A stretch of DNA of 64,000 nt from an uncultured Clostridiaceae bacterium (GTDB lineage: Bacteria; Bacillota; Clostridia; Monoglobales; Firm-18), in contig CAZNKU010000002.1 of NCBI GenBank assembly GCA_964573775.1, positions 9,286-73,285 on the forward strand, read 5' to 3'. The position numbers were made by a program, and so were the translations under genes. Shown piece after piece: positions 7,509 to 26,970 of the stretch (positions are counted from its first letter, which is position 1; the number at the start of each line of letters is the position of its first letter). A model generated the notes under the pieces. The model made no database searches. It had not been told where the DNA came from and worked only from the letters and a program-made list of their open reading frames with translations.

Positions 7509-7520
7509 CTATTTAAAATG

Positions 7521-7712: not shown

Positions 7713-7851
7713 TTCTACTACATCTCCTTTGCTTTTATAGTTTAACTTTTTTCAAGTTACAGTCATATTTTTTGCAAAGGCGTATTTTATATACTGTTAA
7801 TTTTTGGACAAATAAAAAATATGATTTTATTATTTTTTTGATATAAAAGTA

Positions 7852-7880
7852 TTGCATTTAATATTTGATTAGAGTATAAT
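7852..7880 (+). promoter_or_regulatory. Sigma-A-type promoter of the glycan operon
   Basis: TTGCAT (7852-7857), 17-nt spacer, TATAAT (7875-7880). Confidence 0.6.
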
Positions 7881-7970
7881 TATTATGTATAGATATAGGC
7901 ACTCGACAGCATTTTTCAAAAAAAGGGATTGGAATGCTGTTTTGGTCGTGCATTAAAAATTAAGTAGGAG

Positions 7971-9185
7971 ATGTTATTTGTGAAGAAAAGGAACATACCT
8001 TTTTCGCCTCCGGATATTTCGGATTTAGAAATAGAAATGGTTACCGAAGTTTTAAAAAGTGGTTGGATAACCACAGGACCCAAGACAAAACTTTTTGAAA
8101 AAGCCATTACAGAATATTGCGGTACTTCAAAAGCAGTATGTTTAAATTCTGCTACTGCGTGTATGGAAATGGCATTGAGAGTTATGGGAATTGGTGAAGG
8201 CGATGAGGTTATAACCAGTGCATATACATATACTGCAAGTGCAAGTGTTATCTGTCATGTGGGTGCAAAGGTTGTTATGGTTGATACTGCAAAGGACAGC
8301 TATCAGATGGATTACGGCAAGCTTGCTGATGCAATTACCGAAAAAACAAAAGCAATTATTCCTGTTGATATTGCAGGAGTAATGTGTGATTATGATAAAA
8401 TATTTGAAATTGTTGAAAACAAAAAACATTTGTTCAACCCAAATAACGATTACCAAAAAGCTTTGGGAAGAGTTATGGTTCTTGCAGATTCTGCGCACGG
8501 CTTTGGTGCAGAATATAAGGGCAGAAAAAGCGGTTCGGTTGCAGACTTTACAAGCTTTTCTTTCCACGCGGTTAAAAACCTTACAACAGGTGAAGGTGGG
8601 GGTCTTACATGGAATTCAATAGACGGAATAGATGATGATGAGCTTTACAAAAAGTTTATGTTGCTTTCCTTACATGGTCAATCTAAAGATGCCTTGGCTA
8701 AAACACAGCTTGGGGCATGGGAATATGATATTGTTGCACCGTACTTTAAGTGTAATATGACAGATATTATGGCTGCAATAGGTCTTGCTCAGCTTGAACG
8801 TTATGACGGTATGCTGAAAAAAAGAAAAAGACTTATAAAAATGTATGACAGCGGACTTAAAGACCTTGGTTTTGAAAGTCTTGAACACTATAATGATAAT
8901 GTTCAGTCCAGCGGACATTTGTATCTTACAAGAATTACAGGTAAAGACAGTGATTTTCGTAATGAGTTTATAATTAAAATGGCAGAACGTGGCATCGCAT
9001 GTAATGTGCACTACAAACCTCTTCCTATGCATACTGCATATAAAAATCTTGGATTTGACATTAATAATTATCCTAATGCATACAATCAGTTTGCAAACGA
9101 GGTTACTCTTCCTCTTAACACTCTTATGGCAGAGGAAGATGTGGAATACATAATAGAAAATATCAAAGAAATAATAGAGGGTTGA
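7971..9185 (+). CDS. DegT/DnrJ/EryC1-family sugar aminotransferase (PglE/WcfR-like); start may be the GTG at 7980
   Basis: IPFSPPDI start, SAH..AVKN PLP-lysine region, 404 aa; AGGAG abuts the ATG, so the GTG 9 nt downstream is plausible. Confidence 0.85.
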   Translation: MLFVKKRNIPFSPPDISDLEIEMVTEVLKSGWITTGPKTKLFEKAITEYCGTSKAVCLNSATACMEMALRVMGIGEGDEVITSAYTYTASASVICHVGAKVVMVDTAKDSYQMDYGKLADAITEKTKAIIPVDIAGVMCDYDKIFEIVENKKHLFNPNNDYQKALGRVMVLADSAHGFGAEYKGRKSGSVADFTSFSFHAVKNLTTGEGGGLTWNSIDGIDDDELYKKFMLLSLHGQSKDALAKTQLGAWEYDIVAPYFKCNMTDIMAAIGLAQLERYDGMLKKRKRLIKMYDSGLKDLGFESLEHYNDNVQSSGHLYLTRITGKDSDFRNEFIIKMAERGIACNVHYKPLPMHTAYKNLGFDINNYPNAYNQFANEVTLPLNTLMAEEDVEYIIENIKEIIEG

Positions 9186-9189
9186 TTTA

Positions 9190-9915
9190 ATGCTGCTTAA
9201 AAAGTTTGAAGACCTTGCACCCGAATTTCAAAATGAAAATGTAAAGAGATATTATGACATTTTAAAAAAGAAAACATTTGCACTTATTTTAAAAAGAACT
9301 TTTGATATAATTGCTTCGGCAATTATGCTTGTGATTTTATCGCCTGTCTTTTTGATTCTCGCAATAGCAATTAAGGTTGATTCAAAAGGCCCTGTTTTTT
9401 ACAGACAGGAGAGAATTACACAGTTTGGAAAAAAATTCAGGATTTTCAAATTCCGCACAATGGTTGCAAATGCAGACAAAATAGGCTCACTTGTTACGGT
9501 AAATAATGACAGCCGTATAACAAAGGTTGGCAGTTTTATAAGAAAGTGCAGACTTGACGAAATATGTCAGCTTATTGATATTTTCAGAGGAACAATGTCC
9601 TTTGTAGGAACACGACCTGAGGTGAAAAAATATGTGGACGCATATGCTGACGAAATGTATGCAACCTTGCTTATGCCTGCAGGGGTTACTTCACTTGCAA
9701 GTATAAAGTATAAGGATGAAGAAAAGCTTCTCTCAGGTGCAGATGATACAGACAGTACATACATAAACCGCATACTTCCTGATAAAATGAAATATAATCT
9801 GGAATATCTTGAAAAGTTCGGTTTCTTTTACGACATCAAACTTATGTTTATGACGGTTTTTGCGGTTTTGAAAAAAGAAGAGGAAGAAAAAACGGAGGAA
9901 AAAGTAAATGGATAA
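9190..9915 (+). CDS. Small bacterial sugar transferase (PglC/WcfS-like polyprenyl-phosphate priming phosphoglycosyltransferase)
   Basis: KRTFDI, one re-entrant helix, KGPVFYRQERIT..KFRTM, RPE motifs. Confidence 0.85.
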   Translation: MLLKKFEDLAPEFQNENVKRYYDILKKKTFALILKRTFDIIASAIMLVILSPVFLILAIAIKVDSKGPVFYRQERITQFGKKFRIFKFRTMVANADKIGSLVTVNNDSRITKVGSFIRKCRLDEICQLIDIFRGTMSFVGTRPEVKKYVDAYADEMYATLLMPAGVTSLASIKYKDEEKLLSGADDTDSTYINRILPDKMKYNLEYLEKFGFFYDIKLMFMTVFAVLKKEEEEKTEEKVNG

Positions 9916-10657
9916 GTTGGTTTCTATTATCACACCCACATATAATTGCGGAAAGTTTATTGCGCGCACAATAGATTCCGTATTAGCGCAGACATACATA
10001 AACTGGGAAATGGTTATTGTGGATGATTGCTCACAAGACGATACAAAAGAGGTTGTCAAAGGGTATATGGAAAAGGACAGCCGTATAAGGTACGAATGCC
10101 TTGAAAGTAATTCAGGAGCTGCAGTTGCACGGACACGCGCTATGGAACTGGCAGAAGGACAGTATATGGCTTTTTTAGACAGCGATGATATATGGAAACC
10201 CGAAAAGTTGGAAAAACAGTTGCGTTTTATGGAAGATAATAATATTAATTTTTCCTGTACCGAATATGAACAGATTGACGAAGATGACAATAAGTTTGGC
10301 AAGGTAATTAAGGTAGTGAAAAAGACTGACTATAACAGGCTTTTGCTTGATTGTCCTGTTGGAAACTCAACAGTTATGTACAATGTTGAAAAAATGGGTA
10401 AATTTGAAGTCCCCAATATCAGAAAGAGAAACGATGACGCACTGTGGCTTCAGATGCTCAAAAGAGAAAAATATATAATCGGTATGCCTGAAGTTCTTAT
10501 GGAATACCGTATACGACAAAATTCAATTTCAAGTAATAAATTTAATCTAATTAAATATCATTGGAAGTTGTATCGTGAAATTGAACATCTTAATGTATTC
10601 CGTTCAACATTTCATGTTTGCTGGTGGATTTTTCTAAAAGTTTTTAAAATAAAATAG
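9908..10657 (+). CDS. Family 2 glycosyltransferase
   Basis: SIITPTYNCGKFI and DSDD motifs; 8-nt overlap with the upstream gene. Confidence 0.8.
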   Translation: MDKLVSIITPTYNCGKFIARTIDSVLAQTYINWEMVIVDDCSQDDTKEVVKGYMEKDSRIRYECLESNSGAAVARTRAMELAEGQYMAFLDSDDIWKPEKLEKQLRFMEDNNINFSCTEYEQIDEDDNKFGKVIKVVKKTDYNRLLLDCPVGNSTVMYNVEKMGKFEVPNIRKRNDDALWLQMLKREKYIIGMPEVLMEYRIRQNSISSNKFNLIKYHWKLYREIEHLNVFRSTFHVCWWIFLKVFKIK

Positions 10658-10671
10658 TGGGGATATAAATC

Positions 10672-11607
10672 ATGAGCAAAGAAAAAGTATTGGTACTTAT
10701 GGGCGGTATTTCTACAGAAAGAGAAATATCACTAAAAAGCGGAACTGCTGTTGCAAAGGCTTTGCAGGAAGCAGGATATACAGTTGAAACACTTGATATA
10801 AATCAGAATAATGTATCTGAAATAGCAAAAATAAAACCTGATGTTTGTTACCTTGCTCTTCACGGCAAGGGCGGAGAGGACGGTTGCATCCAGGGTATGC
10901 TTGAATGGATGGGTATTCCATATACAGGTCCCGGAGTTTCGGCAAGTGCAATTTGTATGGATAAGGCACTTACTAAAAAGGTTTTGGTACAAAGTGGTAT
11001 ACCTACACCAAAGTCTTTGGAATATACAAAGGATGAATGTACAGATGTTGAAAAAATCAAAAATGAATTGATAGAAAAATTGGGTATTCCTGTTGTGTTA
11101 AAATCACCTTGTCAGGGTTCAAGCATCGGTGTTGTTATCGTACGTGACGAAGCATCTGTTGCAGACGCTATTGAAGAAGTTTTCAAATACGGCGACATTA
11201 TGCTTGCGGAACAGTTCGTTTGTGGTGTAGAAATTTCCGTTCCTGTTGTAGGCAATGAAAATCCTAAGGTTTTTCCGATTATTGAGATTGTACCTGTCAG
11301 CGAATTTTATGATTTTGAATCAAAGTATACACCTGGTATGAGTGAACATATCATACCTGCACGAATCAGCGAAAAAGCTATTGCAAACGTAAATAAGTAT
11401 GCAAAGGAAGCCTATGAAAAAACAGGTTGCAGAGGAGTTTCGAGAATAGACCTTATTATTGATGAAAATGATAACCCTTATGTTATAGAAATAAACACAA
11501 TCCCAGGTATGACCGAAACAAGCCTTGTGCCTGATTCCGCAAGATATATAGGAGTAGAATTCCCACAGCTTGTTGACAGAATTGTAAAACTTGCATTGAA
11601 AAAGTAG
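10672..11607 (+). CDS. ddl: D-alanine--D-alanine ligase (ATP-grasp)
   Basis: Full-length Ddl-like sequence: VLMGGISTEREISL, HGKGGEDG, EINTIPGMTETSL. Confidence 0.85.
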   Translation: MSKEKVLVLMGGISTEREISLKSGTAVAKALQEAGYTVETLDINQNNVSEIAKIKPDVCYLALHGKGGEDGCIQGMLEWMGIPYTGPGVSASAICMDKALTKKVLVQSGIPTPKSLEYTKDECTDVEKIKNELIEKLGIPVVLKSPCQGSSIGVVIVRDEASVADAIEEVFKYGDIMLAEQFVCGVEISVPVVGNENPKVFPIIEIVPVSEFYDFESKYTPGMSEHIIPARISEKAIANVNKYAKEAYEKTGCRGVSRIDLIIDENDNPYVIEINTIPGMTETSLVPDSARYIGVEFPQLVDRIVKLALKK

Positions 11608-11627
11608 TTTTCATAAAAAGGATTTTA

Positions 11628-12692
11628 ATGTACCAGAGAGGGTTTGATAAAGTGAAAAAAATTTGTGTTATAGGGCATTTTGCTTTTGGTAAAACAATGC
11701 TTAACGGTCAAACCGTAAAAACAAAAATTTTATCTGACGAACTTGATAGGATATATGGCTCAGAAAATGTAGGGAAGATAGATACTCATGGTAATAAGCT
11801 TAAAATGGCATGGTATGTTTTAAAGGCAATGTTCGGTATGTTTTGTTACAAAAACATAATTATTTTGCCTGCCCATAACGGAGTGCGTGTTTTTGTACCG
11901 GTGCTTTCTGCACTTAGAAGAATTTCAAAATGCAAACTTCACTATGCTGTTGTAGGCGGTTGGCTTGCAGATTACATAAAGGATAAGGACAAAGTAAAAA
12001 AGAGCCTTTTCAAGTTTGACGGTGTGTATGTGGAAACAACTGCCATGAAAAATGCACTCAATGAAATGGGTTATGGCAATGTATTTGTCATGCCAAACTG
12101 CAAAAATTTAAATATCTTAAAAGAGGAAGAGCTTGTTTATAATACTGAAAAACCTTATAAGCTGTGTACCTTTTCTCGTGTTATGAAGGAAAAGGGTATA
12201 GAGGATGCCATTAATGCTGTTAAGGCAGTAAATGAAAAATACGGTGAAACAATCTATACGCTTGATATTTATGGACAGGTTGATGCAGGCCAAATAGAAT
12301 GGTTTGAAAATTTACAAGCCAATTTTCCCGATTATGTAAAATATGGGGGGTTAGTCCCTTTTGATAAAAGTGAGGAAGTGCTGAAAAATTATTTTGCTCT
12401 TTTGTTCCCTACCAATTATTACACAGAAGGGATACCGGGAACTATTATAGATGCTTATGCGGCAGGAATTCCCGTAATTTCTGCAAAATGGGAAAATTAT
12501 AAAGATATTGTTATTGAAAATAACACAGGCTTGTTGTTTGAAATGCAGAACAACGAGGAATTTACAGAAAAACTTACAGAAGTTTGTGGGAATGTTGATA
12601 AATTAAATTCCTTGAAAGTAAATTGTCTTAAAGAGTCAGAAAAATATTTGCCGAAAAATGTTTTGGATTTGCTTATTAAAAATTTAAGATAG
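11628..12692 (+). CDS. GT4-type (GT-B) glycosyltransferase
   Basis: C-terminal EGIPGTIIDAYAAGIPVI retaining-GT motif. Confidence 0.7.
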   Translation: MYQRGFDKVKKICVIGHFAFGKTMLNGQTVKTKILSDELDRIYGSENVGKIDTHGNKLKMAWYVLKAMFGMFCYKNIIILPAHNGVRVFVPVLSALRRISKCKLHYAVVGGWLADYIKDKDKVKKSLFKFDGVYVETTAMKNALNEMGYGNVFVMPNCKNLNILKEEELVYNTEKPYKLCTFSRVMKEKGIEDAINAVKAVNEKYGETIYTLDIYGQVDAGQIEWFENLQANFPDYVKYGGLVPFDKSEEVLKNYFALLFPTNYYTEGIPGTIIDAYAAGIPVISAKWENYKDIVIENNTGLLFEMQNNEEFTEKLTEVCGNVDKLNSLKVNCLKESEKYLPKNVLDLLIKNLR

Positions 12693-12705
12693 AGGTGTTT
12701 TTGCT

Positions 12706-13221
12706 ATGTGGAATATAAAAACCAGAATATGGTATATATTATATAAAATATCTGCGGCAAGCTTACCCGAAAGTCGTCACTTTGGGTTTGCAAAAAAGGC
12801 TCGTGGTTTTTACGCTCGCAAGATAGCCGCCTTTGTGGGCAGAAATGTTAATATTGAAAAGAATGCATATTTTACTCCCGGTTTGCGTATAGGTAATAAT
12901 TCGGGAGTAGGTATCCGTTGTGAAGTCAATGGAGAGGTTACAATTGGCAACGATGTAATGATGGGACCGGAGGTTGTTATTTATACTTCATCTCATGCCC
13001 ATGACCGAATAGACATACCGATGATCGAACAAGGCTCACAAGAAACCAAGCCTGTAATTATAGGCAATGATGTGTGGATAGGACGGCGCGCCATAATTAT
13101 GCCCGGTGTAAACATCGGCAACGGATGTATTATAGGTGCCGGTGCAGTTGTTACAAAAGATGTTCCTGATTATTGTATAGTTGGTGGAGTGCCTGCTAAA
13201 ATAGTTAAAAGGAGACAATAA
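12706..13221 (+). CDS. Left-handed beta-helix (hexapeptide) O-acyltransferase
   Basis: Hexapeptide repeats IGNDVWIGRRAIIMPGVNIGNGCIIGAGAVV, MAT/WcaF-like. Confidence 0.75.
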   Translation: MWNIKTRIWYILYKISAASLPESRHFGFAKKARGFYARKIAAFVGRNVNIEKNAYFTPGLRIGNNSGVGIRCEVNGEVTIGNDVMMGPEVVIYTSSHAHDRIDIPMIEQGSQETKPVIIGNDVWIGRRAIIMPGVNIGNGCIIGAGAVVTKDVPDYCIVGGVPAKIVKRRQ

Positions 13222-13223
13222 AA

Positions 13224-14324
13224 ATGAAAAGACTTTTATGTATTGTAAGTAATATGAATGCAGGCGGTGCAGAAACATTTTTAATGAAATTATTTCGTAA
13301 TATAGACCGAACACAATATATGATGGATTTTTGTGTTAATAGAAAGGACACCTGTTTTTACGAAGAAGAAATATATAAATTGGGTGGTAAAATTTTTGAA
13401 ATACCCTCAAAATCAGATAATTTAAAAGCTTTCAAAAAAGCACTTTTCAAATTGGTAAAAGAAGAAAAATATGAATATGTTTTAAGAATAACTTCTAATA
13501 CTGTGGGATTTATGGACTTGAAGATAGCAAAAAAAGCGGGGGCGAAGGTTTGCAGTGCACGTTCCAGCAATTCCAGTGACGGAGGTAGTTTGAAAAGTTT
13601 ACTTGTACATAAACTTGGGCGTTTGTTATATGGTAAATATGTTGATGTAAAGTTTGCGCCTTCTGACCTTGCCGCTAAATACACTTTCGGCAAAAAGGCT
13701 TATGAAAATGGAGTGGCCAAAATTTTGCACAATGCGATTGATTTAGATGTGTTTTCATATAAGGCAGATGGAAGAGACAGAGTTCGTGAAGAATTTAAAA
13801 TAAATGATAATACCATAGTCGTTGGTCATATGGGCCGTTTTATGACACAGAAAAATCATATGTTTTTATTGGATATTTTTGATGAGTATCATAAAAAGCA
13901 TAAGAATAGTGTTTTGATGCTTGTCGGCAAAGGGGAACTTGAACAGCAGATTAAGGGAAAAATTGCTGATAAAGGATTGACCGATTCGGTTATATTTACC
14001 GGTGTTCGTTCTGATGTACCTGATGTTTTTTCTGCTATGGATGTTTTTGTAATGCCTTCTTTATATGAGGGTATGCCAAATGTTGTTATTGAAGCACAGG
14101 CTACAGGTCTTCCGTGCATTATAGCTGATACTATTACCAAGGAAGCAGATATAACAGGATTAGTTAGTTATATGTCTTTACAAACCTCTGCAAAAGAATG
14201 GGCAGAGAAAGTTGGTAAATCCATAAATACGGAAAGAGTAGATACAAAAGAGAATTTTATAAAAAATGGCTATGATATTAGAGGCGTTGCTGACGAATTT
14301 ATCAAATTGGTATTTGGAGAGTGA
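13224..14324 (+). CDS. GT4-type glycosyltransferase
   Basis: N-terminal GGAE motif and EGMPNVVIEAQATGLPCI motif. Confidence 0.8.
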   Translation: MKRLLCIVSNMNAGGAETFLMKLFRNIDRTQYMMDFCVNRKDTCFYEEEIYKLGGKIFEIPSKSDNLKAFKKALFKLVKEEKYEYVLRITSNTVGFMDLKIAKKAGAKVCSARSSNSSDGGSLKSLLVHKLGRLLYGKYVDVKFAPSDLAAKYTFGKKAYENGVAKILHNAIDLDVFSYKADGRDRVREEFKINDNTIVVGHMGRFMTQKNHMFLLDIFDEYHKKHKNSVLMLVGKGELEQQIKGKIADKGLTDSVIFTGVRSDVPDVFSAMDVFVMPSLYEGMPNVVIEAQATGLPCIIADTITKEADITGLVSYMSLQTSAKEWAEKVGKSINTERVDTKENFIKNGYDIRGVADEFIKLVFGE

Positions 14325-14329
14325 AATAT

Positions 14330-15418
14330 ATGAAGCATATATTATTTGCAATCGGTTCACTTTATGGCGGTGGTGCAGAACGAGTTGTTTCGGTATGGTC
14401 AAGCAGACTTGCGAAAAAAGGGTATAAAGTTTCTGTCTTAGTGTATTCCAGAATGGAAAATGAATATCCGATTGACAACAAAGTAGAAGTGTATACTATT
14501 GCAAAATCTCAAAAAGAATGTAACGATATGTCTATTTTATCAAGGTTAAGATTGTTCAGGAAAAAGCTAAAAGAAATTAAACCTGATGTCGTTATAAGTT
14601 TTTTACCGATTATGCAAATATATGTTAGAATTGCGTGTATCGGACTACATATTCCCAGAATAGAAACAGTCAGAAATAATCCATGGGAAATTGAAAAAGG
14701 ACTAAATGCAATATACTCTAAACTATGGTTAAATTGTTTTAAAACCTGTAATGCTTTTATAGTACAAACAGGAGACCAGAAACTTTTTTTTGATAAGAAG
14801 GTGCAGGATAAAGCTGTAGTTATTCCCAATTCGATAAATGAATCATATTTGCAAAGCCATAAGACAGAATATAATGATAATTCTCATAAAATTATTGCAG
14901 CGGGCAGGCTTACTTTACAAAAGAACTATAAAATGATGATTGATGCTGTAAAAACGGCATCACAGAAATATGTGGATATAACCCTTGAAATATATGGTGT
15001 TGGAGAGCTTTACGATGAACTTAACGATTACATAAATGAACAGGGTTTATCCGATAAAATAACTCTTATGGGAAGAAGTGACAGTTTGTACAAGCTGTAT
15101 CCGGAGCGGGATTTGTATTTGATGAGTTCGGACTACGAAGGTATGCCAAATGCTTTGGCTGAGGCTATGGCAGTAGGACTTCCTTGTATTTCGACGGATT
15201 GCAAAACCGGACCACGGGATTTGATTGAAAATGGAGAAAATGGGTATTTGGTTGAAGTGGGAAATGCAGGTGTTATGGCAGAAAAAATTGTGGAATTTTT
15301 CGAACTTTCTGGCGATGGCCAAAAGATAATTGGTGAGAATGCAAGGAAAAAAATAATTGATTTTTGCAGTGAAAAAAATAGTATGTCAAAGCTAATACAA
15401 TTAATTGAGGCGATTTAA
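14330..15418 (+). CDS. GT4-type glycosyltransferase (ORF opens at GTG 14321; the ATG at 14330 has the better RBS spacing)
   Basis: GGGAERV and EGMPNALAEAMAVGLPCI motifs. Confidence 0.8.
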   Translation: MKHILFAIGSLYGGGAERVVSVWSSRLAKKGYKVSVLVYSRMENEYPIDNKVEVYTIAKSQKECNDMSILSRLRLFRKKLKEIKPDVVISFLPIMQIYVRIACIGLHIPRIETVRNNPWEIEKGLNAIYSKLWLNCFKTCNAFIVQTGDQKLFFDKKVQDKAVVIPNSINESYLQSHKTEYNDNSHKIIAAGRLTLQKNYKMMIDAVKTASQKYVDITLEIYGVGELYDELNDYINEQGLSDKITLMGRSDSLYKLYPERDLYLMSSDYEGMPNALAEAMAVGLPCISTDCKTGPRDLIENGENGYLVEVGNAGVMAEKIVEFFELSGDGQKIIGENARKKIIDFCSEKNSMSKLIQLIEAI

Positions 15419-15442
15419 ATATATTGTGAGAGGAGAAGGTAA

Positions 15443-16708
15443 GTGAATTATTGTATAAAAGAAAAAAATGGGAAAAGCATACTAGAGTCTAAAAATGGCA
15501 TAAATAATTTTCTTGCCTTTGCAACACTTTTGCTTTTAGTCTTATCCCAAAATAAGGATTGGGGAAGCACTAGCTTTTTGTGGTGGGGTGCAGTAGGGCT
15601 ATTTATGGTTACGGTTGTTCTTTCAAATAATTTAAAGTTTTATTTGGATGTTGGATATACAACCTGGGTTGTATCGTTTTTACTTATATGCTTTTTTTCA
15701 TTAATGTGGGCAGTTGACACTACTCCTGTTATAAATTCATTAAAAAATCTATTAGTCCATTTTACTATATTAATATTATTACGTTCTTCAATAAGAACGC
15801 GTGAAGATATTGAAACTGTATTTAAAGTTATAGTTTTGTCGGTTGTTATTAATTCTGCTTATCTTCTTTTTATTAGTTCAAGTGTTTTAGAACAGGCAAA
15901 AATGGTGGAGAGTGGGGCAGCCAGACTGGGCGAAGAAGGTGCCTGGAATGCCAACGGAATAGGGTTTATGACTTCAAATGCTGTGTTGATTTCCTTGTTT
16001 TTTTTCAAAAAAACCAAGAAAAATTATGTGAAGTTAATTAATATTTGTATAATTGTATTGACTTGTGTGGTTACTTTGTTGACCGGATCGCGTACTGCGA
16101 TTCTAAAAGTTGCTGCAGGTTTAGCATTGTTTACATATTTTAGTTATAATGGTAAACGGTTTAAAGCAGTGTTAATTATTTTGATTCTGTTGATTGTACT
16201 ATACTGTGTTATGATGTATGTGCCCTTATTTTACTCTATTATCGGTTGGAGAATGGAAGGGTTGTTTGCAATGTTTACAGGTGTAGGTGAAATTGAATCC
16301 AGTGCTGATATACGCGATAAATTTATAGGAGATGCAATAGAAAGATGGAAGGAAAGGCCAATTTTAGGTTATGGGCTTGATTGTTACAGAAGGGTTAATA
16401 CAATAAAACAAAATTATTATTCCCATAATAATTTTGTTGAATTGTTGGCTGATTTAGGTGTGGTAGGATTTATTGCATTCTATATTGCACACATAAAGAA
16501 TTTGTTTATATTATTCAAATTCAAAAAGGATGATAGTATGAAGTGGTTTTTGATTACAGCTATTATTGTGGTGCTGCTTTCTGACTATGGTACAATTTCA
16601 TACCATAACCTTTTGACTATGTCATTGATTATGTTGTCTTTCGCATATATTACAATTTGCAAAAGGGAGGAACAAAAATATGATATCGAGAATCAAAGCG
16701 ATGTATAG
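15443..16708 (+). CDS. wzy: O-antigen polymerase/ligase-family membrane protein (Wzy-like)
   Basis: About 10-12 TM segments with a large loop containing GSRTA and HNNFVELLADLG, as in Wzy_C. Confidence 0.6.
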   Translation: MNYCIKEKNGKSILESKNGINNFLAFATLLLLVLSQNKDWGSTSFLWWGAVGLFMVTVVLSNNLKFYLDVGYTTWVVSFLLICFFSLMWAVDTTPVINSLKNLLVHFTILILLRSSIRTREDIETVFKVIVLSVVINSAYLLFISSSVLEQAKMVESGAARLGEEGAWNANGIGFMTSNAVLISLFFFKKTKKNYVKLINICIIVLTCVVTLLTGSRTAILKVAAGLALFTYFSYNGKRFKAVLIILILLIVLYCVMMYVPLFYSIIGWRMEGLFAMFTGVGEIESSADIRDKFIGDAIERWKERPILGYGLDCYRRVNTIKQNYYSHNNFVELLADLGVVGFIAFYIAHIKNLFILFKFKKDDSMKWFLITAIIVVLLSDYGTISYHNLLTMSLIMLSFAYITICKREEQKYDIENQSDV

Positions 16709-17225: not shown

Positions 17226-17235
17226 CGGAGGAAAA

Positions 17236-18126: not shown

Positions 18127-18138
18127 CAAGGAGTTGTA

Positions 18139-19245: not shown

Positions 19246-19344
19246 TTTTATTTTGCCGAGGTGTGTTTTTGAGTGCTTTATATCCTATATGATTAGGTAG
19301 ATTATATATTGCCAGGTAAATATTATTGTGTGAGGGGTGTTTTT

Positions 19345-20250
19345 ATGGATTTGGTAACATGTGCAATTACAACACATAAACGCAAACCGGAAATTGTTGA
19401 AAGAGCATTGAAGAGTATATTGAATCAAACACATAAAAATATTGAGGTTTTTATTGTTGATGACAGTCCTGCTGATTGGGAATACCGCAGTGAAGTGAAA
19501 AATATGGTTGAATCATATTCGGAGCATAATGTTATGTATATCGCTCACGAAGAATGCATGGGAGCATGTGTAGCAAGAAATACAGCCCTTGAAAATGCCA
19601 AAGGTGTATACATAGGTTACCTTGATGACGATGATGAATGGTGTCCGGACAAGATAGAAAAACAATTGCAAGGATTCACTAATAAAAATATAGCTCTTGT
19701 ATATTGTGATCATAAAATTATATACGATGGAACAGATAGGGTGAAAAATATAGTATCTGAAAAGCACTCCGGCTATGTGTTTGATAAATTGTTTTTCAGT
19801 AATTTCATAGGTTCTACATCTTTTCCCTTGATAAAAACAAAATGTTTAAAAGAAATTGGCGGATTTGATCCACTTATGCCTGCAGCACAGGATTATGATG
19901 TGTGGATTAGAATTGCAGAGAAATATGAAGTTAATTATGTGTCAGCGGAACTTGTTGTGTATCATGCTCACGAGGGAGAACAAATTACTAAAAATCCAGC
20001 TAAAAAAAACAATGGATTAAAGAGGATTATGGAAAAGCATAAAGATTACTTAAATGCTAACAAAGAGGCTTATTGGGTGCGTTATATGAAGCTGATTCTT
20101 TCACACATGAATGCAAAACAATATTCTGAAGCATTAAGATGTTGGAGAAAGGCTGCTTTTAAGTGTCCGCTAAAAATTACAGAAAATTTACATTATTTGT
20201 ATTTAATATTTGCAAAGATGTTTGTTAGTATAAGAGATAGAAAAAAATAA
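19345..20250 (+). CDS. Family 2 glycosyltransferase
   Basis: GAGGGG RBS before the ATG at 19345; NQTHKNIEVFIVDDS and LDDDDEW motifs. Confidence 0.75.
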   Translation: MDLVTCAITTHKRKPEIVERALKSILNQTHKNIEVFIVDDSPADWEYRSEVKNMVESYSEHNVMYIAHEECMGACVARNTALENAKGVYIGYLDDDDEWCPDKIEKQLQGFTNKNIALVYCDHKIIYDGTDRVKNIVSEKHSGYVFDKLFFSNFIGSTSFPLIKTKCLKEIGGFDPLMPAAQDYDVWIRIAEKYEVNYVSAELVVYHAHEGEQITKNPAKKNNGLKRIMEKHKDYLNANKEAYWVRYMKLILSHMNAKQYSEALRCWRKAAFKCPLKITENLHYLYLIFAKMFVSIRDRKK

Positions 20251-20279
20251 ATCTTTTGGGATTGATGGGAGAAAGAAAT

Positions 20280-21443
20280 ATGAAAAAGTATATTCTGGTT
20301 ACCGGCGGAGAACTCCGAAATAAAGGAGCTCAGGCAATGACATTTATTACAGTTGACCAAATTGCAAAGAAATTTCCTGAATACCGTGTTGTTTTATTGG
20401 ACGGCTACGATTATAGTGAGGGACTAACGAAAAATTTAAAGTTTCAATTTACAAAATTAGCAAGAATACGATATATGCTTAATTGCTTAAAACCTTGGAA
20501 AAATCCATTTCCAAAAAAATATGAAGTTTCTGAAATTTTTAATAATTTGGCAGGGGTTGTGGATATAAGCGGATACAGACTTGGGTCAAATTGGCCTGAT
20601 CATACTGTTAAGTCATACATACGAACCATTTTTTTTGCCAAACATCTTGGCGTACCGGTATATTTGATGCCGCAATCTTTCGGACCGTTTGAATTTAAGG
20701 GAAAAAACAAGTTTATACTTAATACTTTAATAAAGAGATATCTTAAATATCCAAAGGTTATAATGGCAAGAGAAACCGAAGGGTATAATTGGCTTTGTGA
20801 AAAGTATAAACTTAAAAATGTAGTTAAAACCCCTGACCTTGTACTGCAGAACACAGGTATTGATTTAGCCAATATTTTTCATAAAGTTCCCGAAACATTT
20901 AAACTTTCCGTACGTGAAAACAGTGTTGCCATAATTCCAAACAGTAAAAATAATAAATTTGGAAATAAAGAAGAAATAATGATTTTGTATAAAAATATTA
21001 TAGATATGCTTTTGGAAAAAGGGAAGTATGTATATCTTTTGTATCATGCAAAAGAAGATTTGTCCATTTGCAGAGAAATGAAAGAATTGTATACGGAAAA
21101 TGAAAATGTAATTCTCGTAGAGCAGGAGTTGGGATGTATAGAATACGGTGATTGTGTTGGTAAGTTTGATTATATTATAGGCTCCAGATATCATTCCATA
21201 GTTCATGCATACAAGGAATATACACCTGCAATAGTTTTTGGATGGGCAACCAAGTACAGAGAACTTGCAGAAATGTTCGGACAGGAAGGTTATTGCTTTG
21301 ATGTACGAAATTCTATGAATACAGAAAATATATTGAATAAAATTGAAATTATGTGTAATCTTTTTGATGAAGAATCTCAAAAAATCAAAAAAGTTATGAA
21401 TGAGGTTCAAAGCAGTAATGTATATGATTATTTAGAATTTTAG
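20280..21443 (+). CDS. Polysaccharide pyruvyl transferase (WcaK/CsaB family)
   Basis: MKKYILVTGGELRNKGAQAM start and SRYHSIVHA region typical of PS_pyruv_trans. Confidence 0.65.
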   Translation: MKKYILVTGGELRNKGAQAMTFITVDQIAKKFPEYRVVLLDGYDYSEGLTKNLKFQFTKLARIRYMLNCLKPWKNPFPKKYEVSEIFNNLAGVVDISGYRLGSNWPDHTVKSYIRTIFFAKHLGVPVYLMPQSFGPFEFKGKNKFILNTLIKRYLKYPKVIMARETEGYNWLCEKYKLKNVVKTPDLVLQNTGIDLANIFHKVPETFKLSVRENSVAIIPNSKNNKFGNKEEIMILYKNIIDMLLEKGKYVYLLYHAKEDLSICREMKELYTENENVILVEQELGCIEYGDCVGKFDYIIGSRYHSIVHAYKEYTPAIVFGWATKYRELAEMFGQEGYCFDVRNSMNTENILNKIEIMCNLFDEESQKIKKVMNEVQSSNVYDYLEF

Positions 21444-21452
21444 AGGTGTAAA

Positions 21453-22970
21453 ATGAGCGAAAGTAGAACTAAAAATGCTTCAAGGAATATAATTTTCGGT
21501 TTTGCTAACAGGTTTGTGGTACTTTGTCTTCCCTTTGTTACGAGAACAATCATCTTGTATTTGCTTGGTTCGGAATATTTAGGCATAGGCACATTATTTT
21601 CATCTGTACTTAGTTTTCTTAATCTTGCAGAATTGGGTTTAGGCAGTGCAATAGTTTATTCTATGTATAAACCGATTGCAGAAAATGATGTTGTCAAAAT
21701 TGGAGCACTATTGAATTTTTACAAAAAGTTGTACAGGCTTATCGGTATAGTTATTTTAGCAGTTGGGTCCATGTTGGTGCCATTTATACCATATTTAATG
21801 AAGGGCGGAGCACCGCAAAATCTTAATCCATACTTGCTTTATTATTTATACCTTATAAATTCCGTTATAAGTTATTTCTTTGCAGGATATAAACAGAGTC
21901 TTTTGACATCCCATCAAAGAAGTGACATTATTAGTAATATTTCGACGCTTATAAGTATATTTATACAGATAGGACAGATTGTTCTTTTGTGTGTAACAAG
22001 GAGTTTGTATACATACGCAATCGTTCCGATTTGCGGAACAATTCTTACAAATATATGTATAGCTATTATTACAAAAAGAAAGTATCCTGACATAAAATGC
22101 GAAGGGGATATTTCATCAGATATCAAGAATGAAATTAAGACTAAAATAGGTGGTTTGTTTGGAACAAAGCTTAACAGTATTGTTGTTCACTCTGCAGACA
22201 CTTTGATTATTTCAGCATTTCTGGGTCTTAGTATGACAGCAAAATACGGAAACTATTACTATATTATGAATGCAATATGCGGTTTTATTATGGTATTTTA
22301 TTCATCAATGACGGCAGGTATAGGTAACAAACTTGTGGTTGATTCCATAGAGGAAAACTATAAATTCTTTAAAAATATGAATTTTATCAATGCATGGCTT
22401 GTTGGTTGGTGCAGTATTTGTCTGCTGTGCCTGTATGAACCGTTTATGGAGCTTTGGGTCGGAGACAGTATGAAACTGGGCATTGTATTTGTAATACTTA
22501 TGGTTGTATATTTTTACATATATATGATTCAAAGAAATATGCTAACATTTAAAGATGCAGCAGGACTTTGGAATAAGGATTGGATGAGGCCTTATATTTC
22601 CATGTCTTTGAATGTTGTTTCTAATTTGGTTCTGGTAAGGTTTATTGGCATTTATGGAATAGTTGTTTCAACGATTCTGGCATTTTTAATATCTGTTCCG
22701 TGGGTAACCAGTGTGTTGTTTAAGAATCTGTTTAAGATGTCACCCGCAAAAAATCTTTTTGCAATCTTTAAATATTCTATATTTACTATTGCTATTGCAT
22801 GTGTTACATATTTTATTTGCGGATTGTGTATGGAAGGGTTTATAGGTTTGATACAGCGTGCAATAATCTGCTGTGTTGTGCCTAATATATTTTTTATATT
22901 GTTTTTCTTTAAGACTGCAGAGTTTGCTTATTTAAAGGATTTTATTCTTAAGAAGGTACTTAAACATTAA
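21453..22970 (+). CDS. wzx: MOP-superfamily polysaccharide flippase (Wzx)
   Basis: 505 aa, about 14 TM segments, N-terminal RNIIFGF..R pattern. Confidence 0.7.
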   Translation: MSESRTKNASRNIIFGFANRFVVLCLPFVTRTIILYLLGSEYLGIGTLFSSVLSFLNLAELGLGSAIVYSMYKPIAENDVVKIGALLNFYKKLYRLIGIVILAVGSMLVPFIPYLMKGGAPQNLNPYLLYYLYLINSVISYFFAGYKQSLLTSHQRSDIISNISTLISIFIQIGQIVLLCVTRSLYTYAIVPICGTILTNICIAIITKRKYPDIKCEGDISSDIKNEIKTKIGGLFGTKLNSIVVHSADTLIISAFLGLSMTAKYGNYYYIMNAICGFIMVFYSSMTAGIGNKLVVDSIEENYKFFKNMNFINAWLVGWCSICLLCLYEPFMELWVGDSMKLGIVFVILMVVYFYIYMIQRNMLTFKDAAGLWNKDWMRPYISMSLNVVSNLVLVRFIGIYGIVVSTILAFLISVPWVTSVLFKNLFKMSPAKNLFAIFKYSIFTIAIACVTYFICGLCMEGFIGLIQRAIICCVVPNIFFILFFFKTAEFAYLKDFILKKVLKH

Positions 22971-22994
22971 AACAATATGATGGGAGTAGGTAAT

Positions 22995-23954
22995 ATGAGG
23001 ATAAAAGAAAAAATCAAGACAGTGGCAAACATGATTGTCAGGAAAAGTTCTTATAAGGATTTATTTAATAATTATCAAAAAAGATATGTAAAAAACACTT
23101 TTGGTAATGGTGTATATGTTAATTACAGTCAATATGAAGCTGTTATTACCAAAATGTATCATACAGTTGAAAAGGGTTTGTCCTATGTTGATTACAGAGC
23201 AGGTTTTGGGGAAAAGGCGATTTTTGAATTGGTTGATACTATGGAAAAGTATAGCCGTAATTATGATGTTAATGCTTTCTTTTATCAGACTGCACTTTGT
23301 ACATTATATGAATATATTGAAAAAAACAGAAAATACGGCTACGAAAATAAAGAATTAGAATCAAAAATAAAAAATCTTTCAGGTATGCCAAATGAGGTTG
23401 GAGGAATTATTACTTTTAATCCTGAAAATATACCTGCTGATTTTGAAGAATTTGTTATGAGCCGTCACAGCATAAGGGAATTTTCCAATGTGCCTGTGGA
23501 TGTTGAAAAACTTGTCTCGGCAATTAAACTTTCTCAGCATACTCCCTCAGCATGTAACCGTCAGGGGTGGAAAACAAGAATTGTTGCAGATAAAGACGTC
23601 TTAAGAACTATTCTTAATAACCAGAACGGAAACAGGGGATTTGGAGATAAAATTGATAAATTATTGGTTATAACATGTGATTTGTGTTATTTTAATAAAA
23701 GCAGAGAAGTGCATCAGGCTTTTATAGATGGAGGTATGTATGCAATGAATATATTGCATAGTTTGCACTATAATAAAATTGCCACAATTCCACTAAGTGC
23801 TTCGTTGAATGTAGTTCAGGATGAAAATGTCAGAAAAGCGATAAATATGAAGAATTCGGAAATTTTGATTATGTTTATTGGCGTGGGCAATTATCCAGAA
23901 ACTTGTCAGACTACAAGATCCGAAAGAAGAAAAGCTGATATTGAAATAATATAA
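22995..23954 (+). CDS. Nitroreductase-fold protein with an N-terminal extension of about 150 aa
   Basis: SRHSIREF, PSACNRQ, NGNRGF motifs in the C-terminal 170 aa. Confidence 0.55.
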   Translation: MRIKEKIKTVANMIVRKSSYKDLFNNYQKRYVKNTFGNGVYVNYSQYEAVITKMYHTVEKGLSYVDYRAGFGEKAIFELVDTMEKYSRNYDVNAFFYQTALCTLYEYIEKNRKYGYENKELESKIKNLSGMPNEVGGIITFNPENIPADFEEFVMSRHSIREFSNVPVDVEKLVSAIKLSQHTPSACNRQGWKTRIVADKDVLRTILNNQNGNRGFGDKIDKLLVITCDLCYFNKSREVHQAFIDGGMYAMNILHSLHYNKIATIPLSASLNVVQDENVRKAINMKNSEILIMFIGVGNYPETCQTTRSERRKADIEII

Positions 23955-23969
23955 CATTGGAGAGATTTT

Positions 23970-25145
23970 ATGAAATGTGTTGAGAGATTTCAAAATACGT
24001 ATAATAAAGAACCTGACGGTATTGCCTTTTGTCCGTATAGGATTTGTCCAATTGGTGCACATTCCGACCATCAGTACGGCAAAATAACCGGACTTGCCAT
24101 AGACAAGGGTATTCATATTGCTTATGGACCAAAGAAAAACGGAGTTATAGAGCTTGTTTCAATGCAGTTTAACAAGCGGGCACAGTTTCATGTTGCAAGC
24201 ATTCCGAAAACTCCTCAAAATGACTGGGCAGATTATTTGCGAGGGGCAGCTTTTGCGTTGGCAAAAAATCATGACCTTGAAGTTGGGCTTTGCGGAGTTA
24301 TAGAAGGTAGCTTGCCAATTGGCGGTCTTTCATCTTCCGCAGCGGTTATTATTGCATTTTTGTCAGCACTTTGCACAGTAAACAAAATAAAAATATCTAA
24401 GCAGGAACTTATTATGACGGCACTTTCTGCGGAAAATAATTACGTTGGTGTATCATGCGGAAAGCTTGACCAGTCATGTGAAGTGTACAGCAAGAAAAAG
24501 CATTTGCTTTACCTTGATACAAAGGATGACAGCTACGAGCTTATTCCTCAGAACCCTGATATGAAACCTTATGAAATTGCAGTTTTCTTCAGCGGTGTAG
24601 AGCGTTCTCTTGCAGGCTCTGCTTTTAATATGAGGGTTGACGAATGCCGAAGCGCCGCATATGCACTTAAGGCGTATGCCGGTTTGGAATATGGGAAATT
24701 CGATGAAACGAACCTTCGCGAAGTGCCATATGAGGTGTATTTGAAATATAAGGAAAGGTTGCCCGAGAACTGGGCAAAACGAGCTGAACATTGGTATACA
24801 GAATATATGCGTGTTGAAGTCGGAGTAGAAGCATGGCGAAAGGGAGATATAGAAACATATGGCAAACTTTCCTTTGAAAGCGGAAGAAGTTCCATTGAAA
24901 ATTGGGAAACAGGCTCGCCTGAACTTAAATCTATATATGAAATAATGCTTGAAACCGATGGTATATACGGAGGGCGTTTCAGTGGTGCAGGCTTTAAAGG
25001 TTGCTGTATGGCGCTCATAGACCCTGCATTCAAAAAAGAAATTTCAAAAAATGTTACCGAAAAATATCTTGCAATGTTTCCGCAGTATAAAGATACATTT
25101 TCAGTACATTTTTGTAAATCTGCAGATGGTTGCAAAATAAAATAA
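23970..25145 (+). CDS. GHMP sugar-1-kinase, galactokinase family (substrate unassigned)
   Basis: PYRICPIGAHSDHQ and PIGGLSSSAA GHMP motifs; GGRFSGAGFKGC. Confidence 0.7.
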   Translation: MKCVERFQNTYNKEPDGIAFCPYRICPIGAHSDHQYGKITGLAIDKGIHIAYGPKKNGVIELVSMQFNKRAQFHVASIPKTPQNDWADYLRGAAFALAKNHDLEVGLCGVIEGSLPIGGLSSSAAVIIAFLSALCTVNKIKISKQELIMTALSAENNYVGVSCGKLDQSCEVYSKKKHLLYLDTKDDSYELIPQNPDMKPYEIAVFFSGVERSLAGSAFNMRVDECRSAAYALKAYAGLEYGKFDETNLREVPYEVYLKYKERLPENWAKRAEHWYTEYMRVEVGVEAWRKGDIETYGKLSFESGRSSIENWETGSPELKSIYEIMLETDGIYGGRFSGAGFKGCCMALIDPAFKKEISKNVTEKYLAMFPQYKDTFSVHFCKSADGCKIK

Positions 25146-25157
25146 GGGGATTATAAT

Positions 25158-25895
25158 ATGATATGCTTAATATTAGCGGCAGGTTATGCCACAAGACTTT
25201 ATCCACTAACTGAAAATTTCCCAAAGCCTCTTTTAAAGGTTGGGGAAAAGACAATTCTTGACCACCTTACAGATGACATATATTCCGGTGGCAAGATAGA
25301 AGAATTTATTGTTATTTCCAACCACAAGTTTGCACAGCATTTTGAGGATTGGGCAAAAACAAAGGAATATAAAATCACAGTAGTTGATGACGGCACAAGC
25401 ACTAACGAAACACGCCTTGGAGCAGTCAAGGATATTAAGTTTGCCATTGATAAATTAAATTTAAGTGATGATATGCTGATTATAGCAGGGGATAATGTCC
25501 TCGATTTTTCTCTTAATAAATTTGTTGATTATGCAATATCTAAAAATTCAAGTGCTGTAATGAGATATTTTGAGGGTGAAAAGAAAAGATTGCAAAAGTG
25601 CGGCGTTTTAGAACTTGATGATGCTGATTTAATTAAAGGTATGGAGGAAAAACCTCAAGAACCAAAATCTAATTGGTGTTGTCCGCCCTTCTATTTCTAT
25701 AAAAAAGATGATATTTCAAGAATTGGAGAGGCAATATCTGACGGATGCGGTGTAGATGCACCGGGAAGCTTGGTTTCCTGGATGTGTAAAAAATCATCAG
25801 TTTATGCTTTTGAAATGCCCGGTTCAAGATATGACATCGGCAACCTTGAAAGTTATGAAAAAGTACAAGAGGAGTATAAAGGAATAACATGCTGA
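25158..25895 (+). CDS. Sugar-1-phosphate nucleotidyltransferase
   Basis: LILAAGYATRLYPLTENFPKPLL signature. Confidence 0.75.
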   Translation: MICLILAAGYATRLYPLTENFPKPLLKVGEKTILDHLTDDIYSGGKIEEFIVISNHKFAQHFEDWAKTKEYKITVVDDGTSTNETRLGAVKDIKFAIDKLNLSDDMLIIAGDNVLDFSLNKFVDYAISKNSSAVMRYFEGEKKRLQKCGVLELDDADLIKGMEEKPQEPKSNWCCPPFYFYKKDDISRIGEAISDGCGVDAPGSLVSWMCKKSSVYAFEMPGSRYDIGNLESYEKVQEEYKGITC

Positions 25896-26962
25896 TACCT
25901 AATGTTGATCTCAATAACAAAACAATAATGGTTACAGGGGCTGCAGGGTTTGTAGGTGCAAATCTTGTTATGGAGCTTTTAAATTCATATGACAATGTTA
26001 ATATTATCGGTGTAGATAATCTTAATGATTATTACGATGTTTCCATAAAGGAATACCGTCTTTCAGAGATAGAAAAGCTTGTTGTCCAAAAGCCTGAAAG
26101 TAACTGGACATTAGTAAGAGGAAGTATCGCAGACAGACAGCTTATGGATAGTATTTTTGAAGAATACAGACCAAATGTAGTTGTAAACCTTGCTGCACAG
26201 GCGGGTGTAAGGTATTCTATTACAAATCCTGATGTATACATAGAATCAAACATTATAGGATTTTATAATATTTTAGAAGCCTGCAGAAAGTATCCTGTTG
26301 AGCATTTAGTGTATGCTTCAAGCTCATCAGTTTACGGTTCAAACAAAAAAATACCATATTCAACAGACGATAAGGTAGATAACCCTGTTTCACTTTATGC
26401 GGCTACCAAAAAGTCTAATGAACTTTTGGCACATTCGTATTCCAAACTTTACAATATTCCGTCAACAGGTTTAAGATTTTTTACTGTATATGGACCTGCG
26501 GGCAGACCGGACATGGCTTATTTTGGATTTACAAACAAGCTTTTAAAGGGTGAAACCATACAAATATTTAACTTTGGTAACTGCAAAAGAGATTTCACCT
26601 TTGTGGACGATATAGTTGAGGGTGTAAGAAGAGTTATGGAATGTGCACCGGAAAAGGAGGATGGTGAAGATGGTTTACCGTTGCCTCCGTACAGAGTTTA
26701 CAACATCGGTAATAACAGTCCGGAAAACTTGTTGGACTTTGTAGATATACTTCAACAAGAACTTATCAATGCAGGTGTGTTGCCTGAAGATTATGACTTT
26801 GAAGCACACAAAGAACTTGTGCCTATGCAACCCGGAGATGTTCCTGTTACCTACGCAGATACATCAGCACTTGAGCGTGATTTTGGTTTTAAGCCATCCA
26901 CAAGTTTGCGTGATGGATTGCGTAAATTTGCAGAGTGGTATAAAACGTTTTATAATTGCTAA
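25889..26962 (+). CDS. NAD-dependent epimerase, UDP-glucuronate 4-epimerase-like (CapI/Cap1J type)
   Basis: VTGAAGFVGANL, YASSSSVYG, YAATKK (YxxxK) and overall resemblance to the CapI family. Confidence 0.7.
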   Translation: MLIPNVDLNNKTIMVTGAAGFVGANLVMELLNSYDNVNIIGVDNLNDYYDVSIKEYRLSEIEKLVVQKPESNWTLVRGSIADRQLMDSIFEEYRPNVVVNLAAQAGVRYSITNPDVYIESNIIGFYNILEACRKYPVEHLVYASSSSVYGSNKKIPYSTDDKVDNPVSLYAATKKSNELLAHSYSKLYNIPSTGLRFFTVYGPAGRPDMAYFGFTNKLLKGETIQIFNFGNCKRDFTFVDDIVEGVRRVMECAPEKEDGEDGLPLPPYRVYNIGNNSPENLLDFVDILQQELINAGVLPEDYDFEAHKELVPMQPGDVPVTYADTSALERDFGFKPSTSLRDGLRKFAEWYKTFYNC

Positions 26963-26970
26963 TAAACAAA

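Follow-up and report, generated by a model that had tools for sequence, protein, structure and literature searches.

A single surface-polysaccharide operon from an uncultured Clostridiaceae bacterium, with a paired TupA-like and ATPgrasp_ST ligase predicted to amidate uronic acids and an embedded gene for a probable housekeeping D-Ala-D-Ala ligase

A stretch of 64,000 nucleotides from an uncultured Clostridiaceae bacterium (assembly GCA_964573775.1, contig CAZNKU010000002.1, positions 9,286 to 73,285 of the forward strand; hereafter the window, with position 1 at its first letter) carries a glycan operon that includes three genes for ligases of the ATP-grasp type: a D-Ala-D-Ala ligase (Ddl), a TupA-like protein, and a member of the ATPgrasp_ST ("sugar-transfer associated") family. 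A preliminary description, made from the sequence alone, recorded about 20 co-directional genes with tiny gaps and proposed that the uronate carboxyls of the encoded polymer are amidated with amino acids, possibly with D-Ala-D-Ala made in situ. The layout is as described: 19 open reading frames (ORFs) occupy positions 7971-26962 on the plus strand, with intergenic distances of −29 to +63 bp, and together they form a single operon for a surface polysaccharide, closed by one terminator. Clear Pfam or NCBIfam assignments were obtained for 18 of the 19 ORFs, and the parts list given earlier proved right, having omitted only the first gene (7971) and a nitroreductase-like gene (22977); its call of a Wzx flippase is less firm.

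The operon opens with a pyridoxal phosphate-dependent aminotransferase of the DegT/DnrJ/EryC1 family (7971..9185; PF01041, E 7e-96; alternative start GTG at 7980), for which the top NCBIfam match is PseC at 299 bits, under the cutoff of that model. This gene, which is 89-91% identical and syntenic in two related loci (L007 and L008; related loci are denoted here by L numbers), probably makes the amino sugar used in priming. It is followed by a 241-residue polyprenyl-phosphate glycosyl-1-phosphate priming transferase (9190..9915; PF02397, Bac_transf, E 4e-58) with one hydrophobic, transmembrane (TM) segment. A candidate N-acetyltransferase for the amino sugar, a hexapeptide acyltransferase with a NeuD/PglD-like C-terminus (TIGR03570, 66 bits, under cutoff), lies further downstream at 16680..17225. 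The arrangement recalls PglC/PglE/PglD and the Bacillus subtilis EpsL/EpsN/EpsM set, with which the window shares a DegT gene that immediately precedes the gene for a small Bac_transf protein with a single TM segment, as well as a PglD/NeuD-like acyltransferase; it differs from them in that a PglF/EpsC-type 4,6-dehydratase is absent from the locus and the window, and all models for the priming module score under their equivalog cutoffs.

Five glycosyltransferases (GTs) are encoded. The first is a GT2 enzyme resembling TuaG, that is, of the teichuronic-acid type (9908..10657; PF00535, E 1e-40; NCBIfam TuaG 290 bits, cutoff 400). Three GT4 enzymes (11628..12692, PF13692 and PF00534; 13224..14324 and 14321..15418, each with a family profile match) and a second GT2 enzyme (19309..20250, likewise a family profile match) complete the set. 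Decorating enzymes are represented by a hexapeptide-repeat protein of the O-acetyltransferase type (WcaF/maltose-OAT-like by family profile matches; 12706..13221) and by a polysaccharide pyruvyl transferase (20256..21443; PF04230, E 3e-24); the latter was considered as a CsaB orthologue and rejected, as it scores 56 bits against a cutoff of 213. A Wzy-type repeat-unit polymerase with at least seven hydrophobic segments is found at 15443..16708 (PF04932, Wzy_C, E 8e-18). The 505-residue protein encoded at 21453..22970 is Wzx-like: it has no Pfam match and only a weak NCBIfam one (WZX_like, E 1.8e-5), its sequence contains about 11 hydrophobic segments, and its positional homologue in L086 matches PF01943 weakly. 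Directly 3' of the pyruvyl transferase/flippase pair stands a nitroreductase-family gene (22977..23954; PF00881, E 2e-13), a position that it also occupies at L086:14671-15642 and L087:13820-14785.

The three ATP-grasp genes lie among these: ddl of the short, DdlB-type form at 10672..11607 (NCBIfam PRK01372, 378 bits, cutoff 243), the TupA-like gene at 17203..18126 (PF14305, ATPgrasp_TupA, E 3e-68), and the ATPgrasp_ST gene at 18139..19245 (PF14397, E 3e-41); profile searches thus bear out all three family assignments made at first reading, and the refuting outcome named there, that the two non-Ddl proteins would miss the ATP-grasp families, did not occur. The operon ends with a sugar-activation module comprising an anomeric sugar kinase of the GalK family, GHMP superfamily (23970..25145), a 245-residue sugar-1-phosphate nucleotidyltransferase (25158..25895; PF00483, E 3e-31, with no NCBIfam model at cutoff), and a short-chain dehydrogenase/reductase (SDR) at 25889..26962. 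As had been noted before, LCP, Wzz, and tyrosine kinase genes are missing at the locus. Indeed, among the ORFs of at least 150 residues in the window, LCP, Wzz, tyrosine kinase (CpsC/D type), Ugd, alr, and a second ddl are all absent; the genes for the chain-length regulator/tyrosine kinase and the LCP ligase may lie in another part of the genome.

The transcription signals at the two ends of the operon differ in quality. The preliminary description had the operon run from a TTGCAT-N17-TATAAT promoter, and this sequence is present at 7852-7880 (plus strand). However, its −35 element agrees with TTGACA at only 3 of 6 positions, the site was not listed by our promoter scan, and a rival candidate (TGGACA-17-TATTAT, 7805-7833, plus strand) lies in the same 259-bp AT-rich intergenic region. 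Both are sigma-70-type candidates by consensus match only, and the number of promoter-like sites in the region (105) is not clearly higher than in shuffled sequences (86 ± 10), so that the operon promoter is a guess. The strong terminator, in contrast, was confirmed as a bidirectional hairpin with a 15-bp stem at 26968-27002, the sole strong terminator in the region, which ends both the operon and a convergent SSB-like gene. The latter (27007-27639, minus strand) encodes a 210-residue protein in which an SSB/OB-fold domain is confined to the C-terminal half (residues 105-200), the N-terminal half having no assignment. An Rfam scan of the whole window returned no riboswitch and no leader RNA.

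The TupA-like and ATPgrasp_ST (hereafter ST) proteins are clear members of their families. The former matches PF14305 with 230 bits (cutoff 25) over the full profile (positions 1-241 of 241); its true start is likely the ATG at 17236, giving 296 residues, as in the gene call of L001. In an alignment with 44 homologues K121, K189, R262, D264, and E276 are invariant. The ST protein matches PF14397 with 142 bits (cutoff 31), and K110, K162, D322, E335, and N337 are invariant in its alignment, where E335 and N337 constitute the E-x-N metal motif. The AF2 (AlphaFold2) models are of high confidence (pLDDT 91.9 for the TupA-like and 94.8 for the ST protein), and the PDB entries that Foldseek ranks highest for them are without exception carboxylate-amine ligases of the ATP-grasp type (Ddl/VanA, RimK, LysX/ArgX, PsnB, and L-amino-acid ligases): for the TupA-like model the top folds are all Ddl, LysX, or PsnB, and for the ST model RimK, LysX, and VanA/Ddl. 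The TM-scores of these matches are only 0.37-0.43, and the two proteins are therefore genuine but distant members of the ATP-grasp fold. A sequence search of the PDB found no relative for either protein.

Neither family is rare. Close homologues of the TupA-like protein number in the thousands among gut Clostridia; three of them came with source names, all "glycosyl transferase". Many of the close homologues have 430-490 residues, compared to about 300 here, and the roughly 150 extra residues have no Pfam assignment. The ST family, the smaller of the two, comprises 5417 clusters at 50% identity (E up to 1e-3), 324 of them at E up to 1e-30; our literature search found no paper naming PF14397, and a search of the ST protein against JGI metagenome contigs gave 90 pattern matches, of which none was confirmed. 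The two genes stand next to each other in the window, L086, L087, L089, and L092 and one gene apart in L088. None of the loci examined had ST without a TupA-like gene, four further TupA loci lack ST, and some loci hold several TupA-like copies (two in L086, three in L089). The comparison across genomes suggested in the preliminary description thus revealed a conserved TupA/ST pairing; it also showed that, at one shared chromosomal site, ddl is constant with or without glycan genes, a point to which we return below.

PF14305 takes its name from TupA of the Bacillus halodurans C-125 teichuronopeptide. Like TupA, WemR from Proteus O-antigen loci is linked to polymers in which uronic acids occur together with amino acids or peptides; the functions of TupA and WemR are predicted, and the host lineage and export pathway differ from those of the window. 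Unlike the B. halodurans teichuronopeptide system, the window locus contains no genes for poly-glutamate synthesis. WemR-type TupA-like enzymes are predicted to attach amino acids to surface polysaccharides and O-antigens (PMC13419641). The precedent for the chemistry is Cj1438C from Campylobacter jejuni, a TupA-like fold that amidates the C6 carboxylate of glucuronic acid (GlcA) (PMC11800379); this bears out what the preliminary description said of a glucuronamide-forming enzyme. This C-terminal domain of Cj1438, from the HS:2 capsule, shares its Pfam family and fold class with the window protein and is likewise encoded in a surface-polysaccharide locus. However, Cj1438 is fused to a GT2 domain and serves an ABC-transporter capsule, whereas the TupA-like protein stands alone, with about 296-307 residues, comes from a Gram-positive Wzx/Wzy locus, and is paired with an ST-family ATP-grasp. 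The locus resembles known ATP-grasp-decorated systems (Cj1438C and, by prediction, those of WemR and TupA) and is fairly ordinary in that respect.

Uronic-acid genes accompany most of the TupA-like loci examined. Four observations support a uronic-acid theme: the TuaG-like GT2, the SDR of the epimerase type, the UDP-sugar 6-dehydrogenases of sister loci (L006, L007, L012, L013, L086, L087, and L088), and a C5-epimerase-like gene in L092. As regards the SDR, the best PDB match is 5U4Q (372 bits), deposited as a dTDP-glucose dehydratase but of the Uge/Gla type; the UDP-GlcA 4-epimerase of B. cereus (BcUGAepi, 6ZL6/6ZLA) is matched at 135 bits. RmlB chemistry depends on a catalytic Asp-Glu pair, in place of which the SDR has the sequence SSSSVYG; the annotation as a dTDP-glucose 4,6-dehydratase, which the label of the best match would suggest, was rejected on this ground. 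The earlier label "UDP-glucuronate-4-epimerase-like" is therefore a fair one, and a UDP-glucuronate 4-epimerase is the activity we would predict for the SDR.

The kinase encoded upstream is related to GalK; HddA was considered and rejected (E 2e-5, against 1e-64 for the GalK models). Its sugar signature reads GAHSDH where galactokinases have GEHTDY, and the window kinase shares the surrounding motif PYRICP[ILV]GAH[SI]DHQ with every one of seven homologues encoded at related loci, with Ala at the position of the galactokinase Glu, the residue in contact with the C6-OH of the sugar. The plant galacturonokinase GalAK reportedly has an Ala at the signature position (Ala41), and the A41E mutant is said to be dead; the Ala of the window kinase may be its equivalent. 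On the strength of this motif the kinase is a candidate uronic-acid (galacturonic acid, GalA) 1-kinase, which makes galacturonate salvage an attractive candidate source of precursors. The kinase, the nucleotidyltransferase, and the epimerase-type SDR stand side by side in the window, much as the plant salvage route combines GalAK, a UDP-sugar pyrophosphorylase (USP), and a GAE epimerase, but the nucleotidyltransferase is RmlA/GlmU-like rather than USP-like. Our literature search on galacturonokinases yielded plant enzymes only. The salvage idea is weakened by L086 and L087, where kinase and nucleotidyltransferase stand alongside a 6-dehydrogenase, and the module may make a different sugar. The kinase travels with the 245-residue nucleotidyltransferase in the window as well as in L010-L013, L086, L087, and L089. 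In sister loci an NTP_transf_5 (PF14907) gene, which the window lacks, also accompanies it.

ATP-grasp chemistry in general permits either polarity, as illustrated by Ddl, which activates the carboxylate of an amino acid. The TupA-like and ST ligases could accordingly activate an amino acid and N-acylate the DegT-derived amino sugar, as occurs in some O-antigens, leaving the uronates unamidated. A DegT gene does head the locus, and more DegT genes occur in related loci. We nevertheless regard N-acylation as quite unlikely: the only characterised TupA-like enzyme activates a sugar carboxylate (PMC11800379), genes that generate or modify uronates co-occur with the TupA-like gene in most loci examined, and the operon has a PglD-like acetyltransferase by which the amine would be capped. 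Given the conserved TupA/ST pair, the uronic-acid genes in most loci, and the precedent of Cj1438C, the best reading is that the two ligases probably amidate uronate carboxyls with amines or amino acids. To this extent the amidation idea of the preliminary description stands; its other half, synthesis of D-Ala-D-Ala in situ to serve the glycan, finds no support in the distribution of ddl.

The in-operon Ddl aligns end to end with Escherichia coli DdlB (2DLN/1IOV; 222 bits) and keeps all catalytic and D-Ala2-specificity residues of the latter (the triad E15, S150, and Y216 along with H63, K215, R255, D257, E270, N272, S281, and L282), by which it is to be regarded as a bona fide short-form D-Ala-D-Ala ligase. 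It shares these residues with housekeeping DdlB enzymes; what sets it apart is that its gene lies in a glycan operon, flanked by gaps of 14 and 20 bp, rather than forming a monocistronic unit or part of a dcw cluster. Between L008 and the window, the nucleotide identity is 80-82% for the housekeeping genes on the flanks as well as for DegT, the priming transferase gene, and ddl. This uniform level indicates that ddl was inherited vertically and is not a recent import. The GC content of ddl (0.379) resembles that of core genes, whereas the central glycan genes have values of 0.315-0.343.

A paralogue dedicated to the glycan would exist beside a separate housekeeping ddl and would be found only together with glycan genes. 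Instead, ddl orthologues that are 73-81% identical to the window gene stand alone in four related species, in L002 (81%), L091 (79%), and L003 and L009 (73% each). The stand-alone genes are preceded by a conserved set consisting of PhosphMutase, an EPSP_synthase-family gene, Lactamase_B, and HAD, with a Flavin_Reduct gene directly upstream of ddl in three of the four loci and a transporter or other unrelated genes downstream. At the same PhosphMutase/Flavin_Reduct site, L007 has the order PhosphMutase, Flavin_Reduct, DegT, priming transferase, ddl, and glycan genes, and in L090 ddl (83% identity) is the first gene of another glycan locus that includes a TupA-like gene. The gap of about 590 bp upstream of the L090 ddl contains a fragment of an rve-family integrase/transposase (L090:9056-9409), which is consistent with a recent rearrangement at the ddl site. 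In a neighbour-joining tree the stand-alone ddl genes are nested among those from glycan contexts, and they all therefore belong to one orthologous lineage and not to a specialised paralogue clade. Conversely, L087 is collinear with the window over 12 genes (55-80% amino acid identity) but has a UDP-sugar 6-dehydrogenase exactly at the position of ddl, and L086 and L088 are further TupA/ST loci without ddl.

A tblastn search detected no second ddl in the window. Nor was a second close ddl found in the representative metagenome-assembled genomes (MAGs) of L006-L009, where the best 80 of the 237 hits of a pattern-limited search, which a distant long-form paralogue could escape, include each assembly a single time. 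Taking together the stand-alone orthologues at a shared site, the collinear loci without ddl, the intact DdlB residues, and the core-like GC content, ddl is most likely the core peptidoglycan D-Ala-D-Ala ligase of the organism, co-transcribed with the glycan genes and not specific to the glycan. It would then most likely be the anchor on either side of which variable glycan genes are exchanged, and the "three ATP-grasp ligases including Ddl" of the locus probably reduce to two glycan ligases and a housekeeping passenger.

These considerations lead us to the following model for this operon of a gut or rumen Clostridia bacterium. The DegT aminotransferase and the PglD-like acyltransferase would supply an N-acetylated amino sugar, which the PglC-type transferase would load onto undecaprenyl phosphate. 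The GalK-type kinase, the nucleotidyltransferase, and the SDR would supply UDP-uronic acids, possibly via galacturonate salvage, and the five glycosyltransferases would assemble a repeat of about six sugars, with O-acetylation and pyruvylation to follow. The TupA-like and ST ligases would phosphorylate uronate carboxyls to acyl-phosphates and then couple an amine, either an amino acid or, as happens in C. jejuni, some small amine. Finally, Wzx would flip the unit and Wzy would polymerise it. We place the probability of this overall reading, namely a Wzx/Wzy heteropolysaccharide whose uronates are amidated by the TupA-like and ST ligases, with ddl as a core gene, at roughly 0.6.

Several points weigh against it. 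We infer all substrates, the order of the steps, and the identity of the amine, and the assignment of the kinase to galacturonate draws on one motif and on a comparison with a plant enzyme. The operon and window contain neither a UDP-glucose/UDP-GlcNAc 6-dehydrogenase nor a 4,6-dehydratase for the DegT substrate, and so two precursor steps must be encoded elsewhere. A second ddl, for example of the long form, is possible elsewhere in the genome. In more distant Clostridia, ddl genes of 58-64% identity occur at shuffled positions in glycan loci (L005 and L010-L015), next to flippases, L-amino-acid-ligase-like ATP-grasps, uronate dehydrogenases, and a GalK-like kinase. The glycan loci of two Lachnospiraceae MAGs contain ddl together with alr (L031:9974-12048 and L032:8534-10927), and in L089, a locus with three TupA-like genes and ST, alr directly follows the flippase (L089:18796-19932). 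This recurrence hints that D-Ala supply may matter to the glycans. In addition, the block including ddl lies at a FeoB/SASP (small acid-soluble spore protein) site in the window, L008, and L092, unlike in L007, L090, and L091, and ddl must therefore have travelled with glycan genes at least once.

The same observations favour the alternative that Ddl makes D-Ala-D-Ala (or D-Ala-D-X) for the glycan, to be attached to uronate carboxyls by the TupA-like ligase, the ST ligase, or both, so that the polymer displays D-Ala-D-Ala. In its favour are the tight embedding of ddl, its varied positions within the glycan loci of several genera beside flippases, ATP-grasp ligases, uronate dehydrogenases, and the GalK-like kinase, and the presence of alr, which accompanies ddl at L031 and L032 and comes behind the flippase gene of L089. 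L005 also fits, as it unites ddl and a TupA-like gene with four L-amino-acid-ligase-like ATP-grasps and an AsnB-like gene. Yet the orthologous ddl occurs alone, without glycan genes, in four loci, the collinear TupA/ST loci L086-L088 do without it, and its sequence has no specialisation relative to housekeeping DdlB. Moreover, D-Ala-D-Ala is present in every cell anyway, so that membership in the locus is neither needed nor diagnostic. On balance, we consider a D-Ala-D-Ala glycan built by this Ddl unlikely. As an observation on L005 itself, its cluster at 1651-19368 comprises ddl, the TupA-like gene, four more ATP-grasp genes (in one of them the C-terminal domain is of the L-amino-acid-ligase kind), and the asparagine-synthase-like gene, and seems to devote much of its content to forming peptides or amides.

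The supply of D-alanine may be linked to TupA/ST-type glycans. Its strongest form, in which ddl and alr are linked to TupA/ST loci because the uronates carry D-Ala or D-Ala-D-Ala, the termini resembling peptidoglycan stems and undergoing cross-linking by penicillin-binding proteins or binding glycopeptides, strikes us as highly improbable. If it were true, transpeptidase cross-linking of the stem-like termini would replace the missing LCP ligase. The suggestions in the preliminary description that such a glycan could be a transpeptidase substrate or a glycopeptide decoy were pure speculation, and we treat them as such.

With uronate amidation and a core ddl as the preferred reading, the locus would add a well-delimited Gram-positive Wzx/Wzy example to the small set of loci with ATP-grasp amidoligases expected to act on acidic sugars. 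It also places the uncharacterised ATPgrasp_ST family in a concrete enzyme pair, since its members travel with TupA-like ligases. The module of GalK-like kinase and nucleotidyltransferase may allow bacteria to convert galacturonate from the diet into UDP-uronic acids. Finally, the locus illustrates that an essential cell-wall gene such as ddl can anchor a hypervariable glycan locus, and that operon membership should not be equated with pathway membership.

The variability of the locus is evident among close relatives. The exact locus was found again on a Logan contig, and in a conspecific MAG (GCA_045591785.1; L092) it is present at 91-95% nucleotide identity with two replacements. The segment at window positions 12533-13848 is exchanged for another (L092:12047-12955), which has a glucuronyl C5-epimerase-like gene (C5-epim_C) instead of the first hexapeptide acyltransferase gene, and the loci differ again after window position 20249, where another GT2 and a Polysacc_synt flippase replace the pyruvyl transferase and the flippase. 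Such mosaicism is behaviour typical of an antigenically variable surface-glycan locus.

The destination of the polymer is a separate matter. Rather than a capsule or exopolysaccharide, it might be a secondary cell-wall polymer, pyruvylated, containing uronic acids, and of the teichuronic-acid type, to which SLH proteins are anchored. The pyruvyl transferase and the TuaG-like GT2 in the operon point that way, as does a gene for an SLH-domain protein at 57864-58553 (minus strand), about 31 kb from the locus, and a cell-wall role would explain why a peptidoglycan gene is embedded and co-transcribed. However, the pyruvyl transferase lies far under the CsaB cutoff, an LCP ligase is lacking among the window ORFs surveyed, and strain mosaicism is more typical of antigenically variable capsules. 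We therefore judge a cell-wall polymer to be rather unlikely; since it concerns only where the polymer goes, it does not conflict with the amidation mechanism.

As for the wider surroundings, a small acid-soluble spore protein gene just upstream of the locus points to a spore former. A second glycosylation cluster is found at 36959-42594 on the minus strand, encoding a 608-residue protein whose C-terminus is a GtrA domain, a GT2 enzyme, and a 937-residue membrane protein with a sulfatase (LtaS-like) domain. Beyond it, a gene at 42877 encodes a cell-wall hydrolase and one at 44103 an amidase.

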